Source: a virus
Lineage: Duplodnaviria > Caudoviricetes
IMG/VR virus record: IMGVR_UViG_3300021400_000034
Span: 96,001 to 160,000 of that record
Length of the DNA stretch: 64,000 nt
Direction: 5' to 3' (one strand)
Part shown: positions 42,114 through 43,545 of the stretch, piece after piece
Numbering within the stretch: position 1 is the first letter of the stretch
Layout of the letters: every line of letters begins with the position of its first letter
Program-made: the position numbers and the translations under genes
Notes under the pieces: generated by a model
Seen by the model: only the letters and a program-made list of their open reading frames with translations
The model's database searches: none
What the model was told of the DNA's origin: nothing

Positions 42114-42223
42114 AAGATAACAGACAGCAATCATCTACCCCAAAGCGGCTATGTTGGTGAAAGTCCAGCCGTCGATGTATGTCGGCGTCATCTAATCTAG
42201 GATTCCGCTCAAAATGTCATCTT
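42114..42223 (+). ncRNA. ACAGCAA cassette 7 (permuted cloverleaf opened at the anticodon loop)
   Basis: AAGATAACA/TGTCATCTT stem; order AGCGG, T-arm, acceptor hairpin, D-arm, CCGCT. Confidence 0.7.
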
Positions 42224-42229
42224 GACTAT

Positions 42230-42303
42230 ACTCCGTTGGTGTAATGGACTTAGCATACGGGCCTACGAAGCCCTTGATCCAAGTTCGAATCTTGGACGGA
42301 GTA
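42230..42303 (+). tRNA. tRNA-Arg(ACG)
   Basis: loop CTACGAA. Confidence 0.88.
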
Positions 42304-42315
42304 CTATTCCATGAT

Positions 42316-42436
42316 TAGATCCAAACTGCAACTCTCAAATCGTTACCATCAATCAACGGCCAAGCATCTCGGGATGCGCCTAGCTACATGGACTGGGAGA
42401 GGAGGGTTCGAATCCCCGGAAAATGAATCGGATCTA
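42316..42436 (+). ncRNA. ACTGCAA cassette 8 (T-arm plus hairpins)
   Basis: TAGATCC/GGATCTA stem; GGG-TTCGAAT-CCC. Confidence 0.7.
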
Positions 42437-42623
42437 GCTAAGCTCTCGATGCTGCTGACATTACGTCTAAATCGGAAAAACGCTATTCCATGTCTCGTGA
42501 AAGATATAAGCGAGAAGCAAGATAGTTAGCTCTGCATCGTCGATGCTAAGAGAGACGATGTCGTCATATATCCTCTGAACGGTCTTCGAGACAAGCGCTA
42601 AATCAACGCACAGGATAAATTAA

Positions 42624-42696
42624 GCTGACGTGCCGAAGTGGGAACGGAGGAGTCTGCAAAACTTTCTATGAGTGGGTTCGATTCCTACCGTCAGCT
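42624..42696 (+). tRNA. tRNA-Cys(GCA)
   Basis: loop CTGCAAA, U73. Confidence 0.87.
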
Positions 42697-42701
42697 CTAT
42701 A

Positions 42702-42811
42702 CAAGATGTCAACCGCAATTCCTTTCCAGGGTAGCTCTAGAGGTAGAGCACCGTCCTTGAGGCGGAAGAAGCTGGTTCGATCCCAGCCCCGGGAGCACAG
42801 ACGGCATCTTG
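42702..42811 (+). ncRNA. ACCGCAA cassette 9 (whole tRNA-like cloverleaf with shrunken anticodon loop)
   Basis: CAAGATGTC/GGCATCTTG stem; cloverleaf 42725-42795. Confidence 0.75.
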
Positions 42812-42822
42812 ACAATTTAAAT

Positions 42823-42906
42823 CGGGCTATTACCTTGGGCCGGACTCATAACCCGGGCCGTTAAAATCCAGGGCGGTGCGGAGAGGTTCGACTCCTCGTG
42901 GCCCGA
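42823..42906 (+). tRNA. atypical tRNA(CAT): D-arm missing, long variable arm
   Basis: CGGGCTA/TGGCCCG acceptor, loop CTCATAA, GGTTCGACTCC. Confidence 0.65.
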
Positions 42907-42909
42907 TAA

Positions 42910-42994
42910 GGAGGACTACACTAATTGGTAAGTGACCACGGTGCTAACGTGGCGCCTCGAAAGAGGCTTCCAGGTTCGAGCCCTGGGTCCTCCG
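42910..42994 (+). tRNA. tRNA-Ser(GCT)
   Basis: loop GTGCTAA, long variable arm. Confidence 0.88.
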
Positions 42995-43076
42995 CTAAAG
43001 ATCTTAGGAGTCGTTGCCCTAAGCAACGTGGAGCGCACGCGCCGGTACCGTCCAGAGCCGTCAAATCTGGACTTTT

Positions 43077-43167
43077 GGAAGTGTGCCAGAGTCTGGCTTA
43101 TCGGACCGGTCTTGAAAACCGAGGGCGGTACCCATTCCGCACGGGGGTTCGAATCCCTCCACTTCCT
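43077..43167 (+). tRNA. tRNA-Ser(TGA)
   Basis: loop CTTGAAA, long variable arm. Confidence 0.9.
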
Positions 43168-43172
43168 CTATC

Positions 43173-43243
43173 GCGTCCTTGATGTAGTGGTAGCACTTCT
43201 CATTGCCTGTGAGAAAGCGCCAGTTCGAATCTGGCAGGACGCT
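43173..43243 (+). tRNA. tRNA-Gly(GCC)
   Basis: loop TTGCCTG, U73. Confidence 0.87.
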
Positions 43244-43266
43244 TACTTTTCTATATTTAAAATACA

Positions 43267-43348
43267 GAGATAGACACAGCAATCCTTTTGGATAACGTAA
43301 TGATCTGCAAAATCAAAGCTAGACGGTCCAAATCCGTCAATCTATCTC
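43267..43348 (+). ncRNA. ACAGCAA cassette 10 (Cys GCA anticodon arm plus T-arm)
   Basis: GAGATAGA/TCTATCTC stem; TGAT-CTGCAAA-ATCA; GACGG-TCCAAAT-CCGTC. Confidence 0.78.
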
Positions 43349-43356
43349 GTTCATAA

Positions 43357-43427
43357 GCACCACTGGTCTAAAAGTATGATCAAACTCTTCCAAAGTTTGG
43401 GAACCGGGGCAGTACCGGTGTGGTGCT
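43357..43427 (+). tRNA. tRNA-Gly(TCC), atypical T loop GGCAGTA
   Basis: loop CTTCCAA. Confidence 0.8.
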
Positions 43428-43430
43428 CTA

Positions 43431-43545
43431 GAGATTCCAACAGCAAACTCTGGTTTTTTCCGCCGTTGGGAAAATAGCTCAATTGGTAGAGCGCTCGTCA
43501 CTATGACGAGAGGTTACGGGTTCGAGTCCCGCTAAAGTGAATCTC
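43431..43545 (+). ncRNA. ACAGCAA cassette 11 (tRNA permuted between T-arm and acceptor)
   Basis: GAGATTC/GAATCTC stem; TTTTTCC-gccgtt-GGGAAAA hairpin followed by D, anticodon and T arms. Confidence 0.8.

Follow-up and report, generated by a model that had tools for sequence, protein, structure and literature searches.

Circularly permuted tRNA genes occur in red algae and in some archaea. In these genes the 3' half comes first, the acceptor is sealed by a linker and the break may lie at any of several positions. The splicing endonuclease acts on a bulge-helix-bulge formed by the ends, and a functional tRNA results.

The YrlA RNAs (RF02553; PMC4201824) have a two-module plan, in which the ends are joined by a stem and a short conserved motif, GNCGAAN(0-1)G, lies near the 5' end. 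Their tRNA-like parts follow the order T arm, acceptor, D arm, positions 15 and 48 covary, and a Ro60-fold gene and RNA ligases are found in the neighbourhood (PMC4201824). Thermus phage phiLo encodes a Ro60 ring of its own, with stem-closed small RNAs upstream (PMC12135203; PDB 9KOP, 9L5Y). These RNAs, Yrl1 and Yrl2, carry a CGAA motif, and the available part of the report describes no tRNA domain in them. Their binding and the recruitment of PNPase have been shown, the host enzyme being bound and slowed by phiLo Ro60 with its Yrl RNAs (PMC12135203). The Class I RNAs of Dictyostelium (RF01414; PMC7919456) likewise have a short end-joining stem, a conserved motif by its 5' strand and a variable interior. 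They are eukaryotic, their reported partner is an RRM protein, and tRNA domains are not described in the accessible part of that source.

Here we investigate a tRNA array in the window, the whole 64,000-nt stretch of DNA that was analysed, which comes from a complete 243-kb phage genome using the standard code. Interspersed among the tRNA genes are 14 short elements, the cassettes, with one common layout: a constant handle joins the ends and encloses a variable cargo. The two-module plan is that of YrlA: a stem joins the ends, a short conserved motif lies close to the 5' end, and the tRNA-like part of cassettes 2, 3, 7 and 14 follows the order T arm, acceptor, D arm; 15:48 covariation is seen in cassette 11. 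A gene of predicted Ro60 fold and an RNA ligase gene lie 70 kb from the array, with a handle in the leader of the former. Unlike YrlA, the motif is ACAGCAA, the putative partner is a DUF2828/DUF7788 protein and not a Pfam TROVE protein, and a single genome holds fourteen RNAs in three topologies, bare anticodon stem-loops included. The phage-encoded ring shared with phiLo is a prediction here, and the RNA partnership demonstrated there is proposed here. With the red-algal and archaeal genes the cassettes share a 3' half ahead of the 5' half, a linker-sealed acceptor and several breaks; unlike those genes, they are closed by a constant handle, and their anticodon loops are non-canonical or switch identity. 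Are the cassettes broken or unspliced tRNAs? Or, are they RNAs of another kind? Most likely they are the partner RNAs of a phage Ro60-shaped protein.

The array, the handle and the cassettes

The array and its cassettes are as follows (window positions).

35497-44715, plus strand: tRNA array with 33 genes called by ARAGORN and a few more that it missed
37900-37961, plus strand: cassette 1, small handle RNA whose anticodon stem-loop resembles that of Asn(GTT)
39020-39143, plus strand: cassette 2, anticodon-side topology, break at 28/29, canonical loop GGT; rejoined score 125 (Thr GGT)
40939-41038, plus strand: cassette 3, T arm, short acceptor hairpin and a hairpin replacing the D arm; rejoined score 79.6
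41230-41299, plus strand: small cassette 4, between tRNA genes
41726-41794, plus strand: small cassette 5, Thr GGT-like loop, between tRNA genes
41883-41939, plus strand: small cassette 6, between tRNA genes
42114-42224, plus strand: cassette 7, YrlA-type topology, broken at 32/33 in the anticodon loop; 5 orthologues
42316-42436, plus strand: cassette 8, opened between T arm and acceptor; rejoined score 93.6; 7 orthologues
42703-42811, plus strand: cassette 9, unpermuted cloverleaf (42725-42795) inside the handle; 13 orthologues
43267-43349, plus strand: cassette 10, acceptor stem replaced by the handle, canonical 7-nt anticodon loop, variant T arm; 9 orthologues
43431-43546, plus strand: cassette 11, break at 64/65, the last T-stem pair; 10 orthologues
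about 43845-43917, plus strand: cassette 12, weaker candidate
44181-44215, plus strand: cassette 13, near-empty handle
44496-44625, plus strand: cassette 14, anticodon-side topology, type II body with positions 27-32 duplicated; rejoined score 113 (Tyr GTA)

The cassettes occupy tRNA-sized slots, mostly 2-11 nt past the preceding tRNA and 4-10 nt ahead of the next, and the spacers flanking them are short like those between the tRNAs of the same array. Nearly all tRNA genes of the array (35497-44715) lack an encoded CCA. Default ARAGORN missed tRNA-like Ala(AGC) and Phe sequences (35576-35650 and 41945-42019, respectively), a long-armed Met(CAT) at about 42826-42908 and, at about 43355-43428, a Gly(TCC) whose T loop is unusual. 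The tRNA called Ser(AGA) at 39671-39742 has short arms and a weak acceptor stem, and in relatives the position is unassigned or called Glu. Two probable homing endonuclease genes lie in the array interior, one DUF559/Vsr-like and of low GC (38162-38944), the other of the SegE-type GIY-YIG kind (39960-40589); homing-type genes in the arrays of relatives vary in position. Five long, apparently non-coding spacers (37420-37820, 39225-39555, 40670-40935, 43710-44180 and 44720-44900) contain no handle, except for candidate cassette 12, and no Rfam match, and may hold further structured RNAs.

In the handle a terminal stem of 5-9 bp pairs the two ends; its first strand is followed closely by ACAGCAA or a near variant, and the element finishes with a G. 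One example is given.

43431-43446, plus strand: handle of cassette 11, 5' strand of the stem, 2 nt and ACAGCAA; the partner strand is 43539-43545, followed by the 3' G

A strict handle pattern has 11 matches in the window, all on the plus strand between 37901 and 44511, with 0.8 expected by chance. The terminal-stem sequences differ from copy to copy, and the motif is always ACAGCAA or a near variant, never GNCGAAN(0-1)G. Rfam, searched at gathering and E-value thresholds, has no family for the handle, its matches being limited to tRNA and to weak overlaps with YrlA or tmRNA. The best RF02553 score is 38.2 bits, on the cargo of cassette 2 only (gathering threshold 69), and the RF01414 model gives 18.7 bits (E 0.09; cut-off 41.5) on cassette 6. 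Resemblances to retrons, integron attC sites, the theta ribozyme, T-boxes and preQ1 were dropped by eye, their motifs being missing. A literature search on permuted phage tRNAs, ACAGCAA, DUF2828, Ro-like proteins and anticodon decoys found no description of the family, although it may be mentioned in reviews. The best reading is that the cassettes form an uncatalogued class of Y-RNA-like partner RNAs, with a putatively protein-binding handle and an interchangeable tRNA-mimic domain.

Cargos were rejoined end to end and scored with ARAGORN, each against 20 shuffles, on a scale where the true tRNAs here reach 100-123. The rejoined cargos of cassettes 2, 3, 7, 8, 11 and 14, and cassette 9 without rejoining, each outscore all 20 of their shuffles. 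There are three break topologies: the anticodon side (cassettes 2, 3, 7 and 14), the T/acceptor junction (8 and 11) and the acceptor end (9 and 10), with linkers of 1-10 nt. A first-pass annotation of this DNA had argued from at least three break regions against one fixed splicing site. The three topologies support that argument, but two of the regions it told apart, the anticodon loop (cassette 7) and the anticodon stem (2 and 14), are variants of one topology, that of YrlA, and count as one.

As had been noted, cassette 7 opens at the anticodon loop. Its parts follow the order anticodon 3' strand, T arm (42153-42169, with a variant loop), sealed acceptor hairpin (42170-42187), D arm (42190-42203, without GG) and anticodon 5' strand, the anticodon stem being formed by 42205-42209 paired with 42144-42148. 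No tRNA is detected in it as written, and the rejoined score is 85 (shuffles max 81). The elbow is swapped, in that C18/U19 facing G55/A56 replace the usual bases and complementarity is kept. In cassette 11 the acceptor 3' strand leads and the T arm closes (acceptor hairpin 43455-43474, D arm 43477-43492, anticodon arm 43494-43510, T arm 43516-43531). The opening between T arm and acceptor that was first reported for it is confirmed, as is the 7-bp anticodon stem (43494-43500 with 43504-43510) with its CTA triloop, and the rejoined score is 114.8 (shuffles max 92). Stop-codon recoding as the cause of CTA loops was rejected, with 23 of 99 long ORFs terminating in TAG.

Cassette 8 has a short acceptor with encoded NCCA, a 4-nt D loop and a 9-nt anticodon loop centred on CAT. 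The unpermuted cloverleaf and 5-nt loop originally described for cassette 9 were both found, the loop (42756-42760) closing a 5-bp stem and the score being 101 without rejoining (shuffles max 91). Cassette 3 lacks both an anticodon loop and the D-loop GG. The view that several anticodons are disabled is thus true of cassettes 8, 9 and 11, with non-canonical loops, of the opened cassette 7 and of cassette 3, but not of cassettes 2, 10 and 14, which have canonical 7-nt loops. Conservation of the elbow regardless of connectivity, also put forward in the first-pass annotation, holds in the large cassettes (2, 7, 9, 11 and 14) and does not extend to the small ones, which have no elbow.

Conservation among relatives and in other genomes

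Cassette orthologues were taken from the arrays of 12 related phages, and arm segments were parsed by pattern, since MAFFT misaligned the variable arms. The orthologues are mutually related, so that the covariation described here represents few independent events. Both the break point and the array position of each orthologous cassette are constant over the 12 phages. The ten cassette 11 sequences have 99% of cells paired and two-sided changes at 5 pairs (0/500 shuffles), and the tertiary pair 15:48 switches jointly from A:U to G:C in two sequences. Anticodon loops of 3-12 nt occur in these orthologues, none of them canonical, while the D- and T-loop signatures are retained. G3.U70, which is the alanine identity pair, is invariant in the acceptor hairpin (10/10).

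Cassette 9 (13 sequences) has compensatory changes in the acceptor, D and T stems, and retains the D-loop GG and the T-loop core. Its anticodon arm has either a 5-nt loop or a long insertion, an A4.G69 mismatch is retained in 12 of the 13, the usual 8:14 pair is lost in this phage, and A15.A48 is found in 7/13. In the most distant orthologue of cassette 7 (L315) the anticodon stem is preserved by compensatory changes, and the seven orthologues of cassette 8 show one such change, also in the anticodon stem, with NCCA encoded in 7/7. A clear homologue of cassette 9, with an identical 5-nt loop and compensatory stem changes, is present in a distant phage (L136:1116 region) with a DUF2828 that is 53% identical. 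Similar short purine-rich hairpins are inserted in the anticodon arms of cassette 9 in four relatives (L297, L314, L315 and L316) and of cassette 11 in one (L297). The tRNA-Gln at 37128-37219 has a comparable hairpin as its long variable arm, and the hairpin may be a further mobile module.

Because the break point of each cassette is kept, and stems and the 15:48 pair covary across the 12 relatives, the comparison indicates that the cassettes are selected structure, neither random capture nor decay. Relatedness limits the number of independent events, yet these changes are not predicted by neutral decay. The structural mimicry suggested in the first-pass annotation gains support from the 15:48 switch of cassette 11, the kept D- and T-loop signatures and the complementary swapped elbow of cassette 7. 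Cargo that did not fold into cloverleaf arms, or that decayed neutrally across homologues, had been named as evidence to the contrary; the cargos fold and their structure covaries. Random capture, offered beside mimicry, finds no support as a description of the present state, given the fixed break points among relatives and a bias in the wider family, where 14 of 18 breaks are on the anticodon side.

Some anticodons change on a body that is almost constant. The anticodon of cassette 2 is GGT here and GTC, GAT or GTT in relatives, that of cassette 10 is GCA here and TCA or CTA in two relatives, and that of cassette 14 is GTA here and GGA or GCA in relatives. Such switching argues against these cassettes being precursors of working tRNAs.

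From other genomes 184 distinct handle RNAs were collected, and 130 of these have cargos of 20-64 nt, too short for a tRNA. These small RNAs have no elbow and are often an anticodon stem-loop alone. A canonical anticodon stem-loop is present in 37/98 non-redundant small members, compared with 6.0 +/- 2.4 in shuffles. The commonest anticodon among those with the stem-loop is Lys UUU (9), and Lys UUU tRNA is the target of PrrC. Eighteen large members rejoin to a tRNA. Their opening lies on the anticodon or D-anticodon side in 14 and at the T/acceptor junction in 1, never in the T loop, and the remaining 3 are unpermuted, the borders between these classes being approximate owing to end trimming. 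The 28/29 joint is seen again in some distant phages.

A predicted Ro60-like protein linked to the handle

A further handle is found elsewhere in the genome.

about 62738-64318 of the genome (G000), outside the window and 70 kb from the array: DUF2828/DUF7788 gene (498 aa) and a further handle

This handle sits in the 5' leader of the gene, with a promoter-like site before it and the start codon after it. It belongs to an RNA-repair cluster (G000 about 58080-64318; L123:580-6819) in which a metallophosphoesterase, an AAA_33 kinase, an NT5C-like HAD nucleotidase and an Rnl1-type ligase are encoded just upstream of the handle and DUF2828.

Structure prediction gives the DUF2828/DUF7788 protein a Ro60 ring fold, a helical-repeat ring closed by a vWA domain. 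The predicted structure has a pLDDT of 89.9, and all 13 Foldseek matches at E<0.001 are Ro60. Against Ro60 2I91 the model gives Z 22.2 and rmsd 4.3 with 410 residues aligned, and against 9KOP, the phiLo Ro60, Z 14.9 and rmsd 5.0 with 401 aligned. Identity to Ro60 is only 10-15%, and a common fold is no proof of common function. A Pfam TROVE (PF05731) search of the whole genome gave no match, and a search of the PDB with the DUF2828 sequence found no solved Ro60 chain or other match.

The handle accompanies this gene in other genomes as well. The 5 closest homologous DUF2828 loci all carry a leader handle, and 160 DUF2828 loci have 162 sense-strand handles within 400 nt upstream versus 1-6 per distant bin, a linkage that is inflated because DUF2828 genes are often inside tRNA arrays. 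An upstream handle is present at 62/80 viral and 36/76 cellular (bacterial) loci, and thus missing from about half of the latter. Among six cultured phages examined, five have a handle beside DUF2828, one of them a mycobacteriophage without a tRNA annotated nearby; the hosts are Salmonella, Mycobacterium, Listeria, Klebsiella and Bacillus. In the leader of Vibrio phage F86 only the 5' half of the handle is present. A presence/absence control set of 10 phages only included seven tRNA-rich phages without DUF2828, none of which has a handle cluster, and the cultured Cronobacter jumbo phage GAP32 (NC_019401), which has DUF2828 and 11 handles at 305266-311887, 200 kb from the gene. A handle cluster is missing under the pattern used from Aeh1 and KVP40, which encode DUF2828. 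In Listeria phage LMTA-94 (L293:5346-6503) an annotated tRNA-splicing ligase lies 1.3 kb downstream of DUF2828 and three handle RNAs lie upstream. DUF2828 is found in 710 phage records, among them Felix O1-like, Listeria and mycobacterial phages.

Explanations for the cassettes

We think it probable that the cassettes are Y-RNA-like non-coding RNA genes, each with a handle putatively bound by the Ro60-fold DUF2828 and a cargo that is a tRNA look-alike. The constant module, a terminal stem of 7-9 bp with the unpaired ACAGCAA by its 5' strand, would be the probable DUF2828/DUF7788 binding site, and the variable module would be an interchangeable tRNA mimic. The enzymes that excise the neighbouring tRNAs may also release the cassettes from the transcript of the array. 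A handle need only join the ends of an RNA, and any opening that a tRNA fold can bear, whether in the anticodon arm, at the T/acceptor junction or at the acceptor end, could therefore receive one, so that permutation points would differ and no common splice site would be expected. The permutation points are best explained as attachment points, not splice sites. What accounts for their variety is probably the constant handle and a likely Ro60-like protein partner, both of which the first-pass annotation left out. The handle in the DUF2828 leader probably serves feedback control.

A fate beyond binding has a small but real chance for some large cassettes, which may be cut at the acceptor linker, receive CCA and be charged, giving two-piece aminoacylated RNAs on a handle, either tmRNA-like or non-decoding carriers. 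The YrlA of M. smegmatis is cut by RNase P and receives CCA, but other YrlA RNAs are uncleaved at that site (PMC4201824). The invariant G3.U70 of the cassette 11 orthologues and the NCCA of all seven cassette 8 orthologues are in keeping with charging; in cassette 11, however, the discriminator is A or G and the T/acceptor stack is interrupted by the handle. Such charging is compatible with the cassettes being partner RNAs of the ring, and the two can coexist.

Could the handle instead be a cis-acting DUF2828 operator and sponge, with a cargo that merely aids excision and survival and has no target of its own? Minimal handles with loops of 10-14 nt stand immediately before the ribosome-binding site in several phages, the near-empty cassette 13 exists, and tRNA-like folds recruit processing enzymes. 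This leaves unexplained the 14 different, separately conserved cargos, and processing enzymes have no need of the canonical anticodon loops of the small members (37 against 6 in shuffles); we regard it as improbable.

Lower still we place permuted tRNA genes. On this view the handle would be a split intron; after its removal the halves would be joined, perhaps by the RNA ligase of the phage, and working tRNAs would result once the sealed acceptor is opened. Rejoined cassettes 2, 11 and 14 do form canonical cloverleaves scoring 113-125, with 7 and 8 weaker; cassette 2 rejoins without gap or overlap, its 125 exceeding any true tRNA here; the 28/29 joint recurs in distant phages; and the Rnl1-type ligase adjoins the DUF2828 gene. 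Three topologies with 1-10 nt linkers do not fit, however, and anticodon switches on one body (cassettes 2 and 14) would be intolerable for a correctly charged tRNA. Moreover, a canonical loop is found in 0/23 orthologues of cassettes 9 and 11, 130 of the 184 family members are too short to contain a tRNA, no bulge-helix-bulge was seen by eye at the joints in the orthologue sets, and Rfam returned no intron family.

Random capture, or decay of tRNA pseudogenes between a mobile inverted repeat, is very improbable even though positions 27-32 are duplicated in cassette 14 and both 7 and 14 have array-like trailers within their acceptor linkers: it is contradicted by compensatory and tertiary covariation and by break points and synteny that stay constant over the 12 relatives, the handles are on a single strand with stems that differ between copies and a tight linkage to one gene, and none of the cargos derives from a resident tRNA by recent copying, the best alignment scoring 0.64 per base, so that it survives only as an account of the first origin of the cargos. 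The same duplication and trailers suggest that the cargos may have arisen from tandem tRNA copies.

If the cassettes are ring-bound partner RNAs, what might they do? The ring may stabilise and display a library of tRNA surfaces (elbows, acceptor arms and anticodon loops), which could sequester or tether the host's tRNA-attacking nucleases and its RNA-processing enzymes, in concert with the kinase, phosphatase and RNA ligase that the phage encodes next to DUF2828. Granting the rest, counter-defence is the function we favour for the DUF2828-handle system, at slightly under an even chance. More speculative, and rather doubtful, is a modular tRNA-decoy library on the ring, with anticodons retuned by point mutation to the host's tRNA-cleaving or tRNA-sensing defence. 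If true, this would be RNA-programmed counter-defence, potentially in many of the 710 DUF2828 phage records, and would add an RNA-based layer to the phage-host conflict over tRNA.

The partner-RNA reading gives the uncharacterised DUF2828 family concrete candidate RNA partners that are testable in laboratory hosts, and offers a testable reason for the odd 'pseudo-tRNAs' of phage tRNA arrays. A tRNA fold appears to hang on a putative protein-binding handle at any of three places and still to be selected at the tertiary level. Some handle RNAs are miscalled as real tRNAs, as with cassette 9, which ARAGORN calls tRNA-Leu(GAG).
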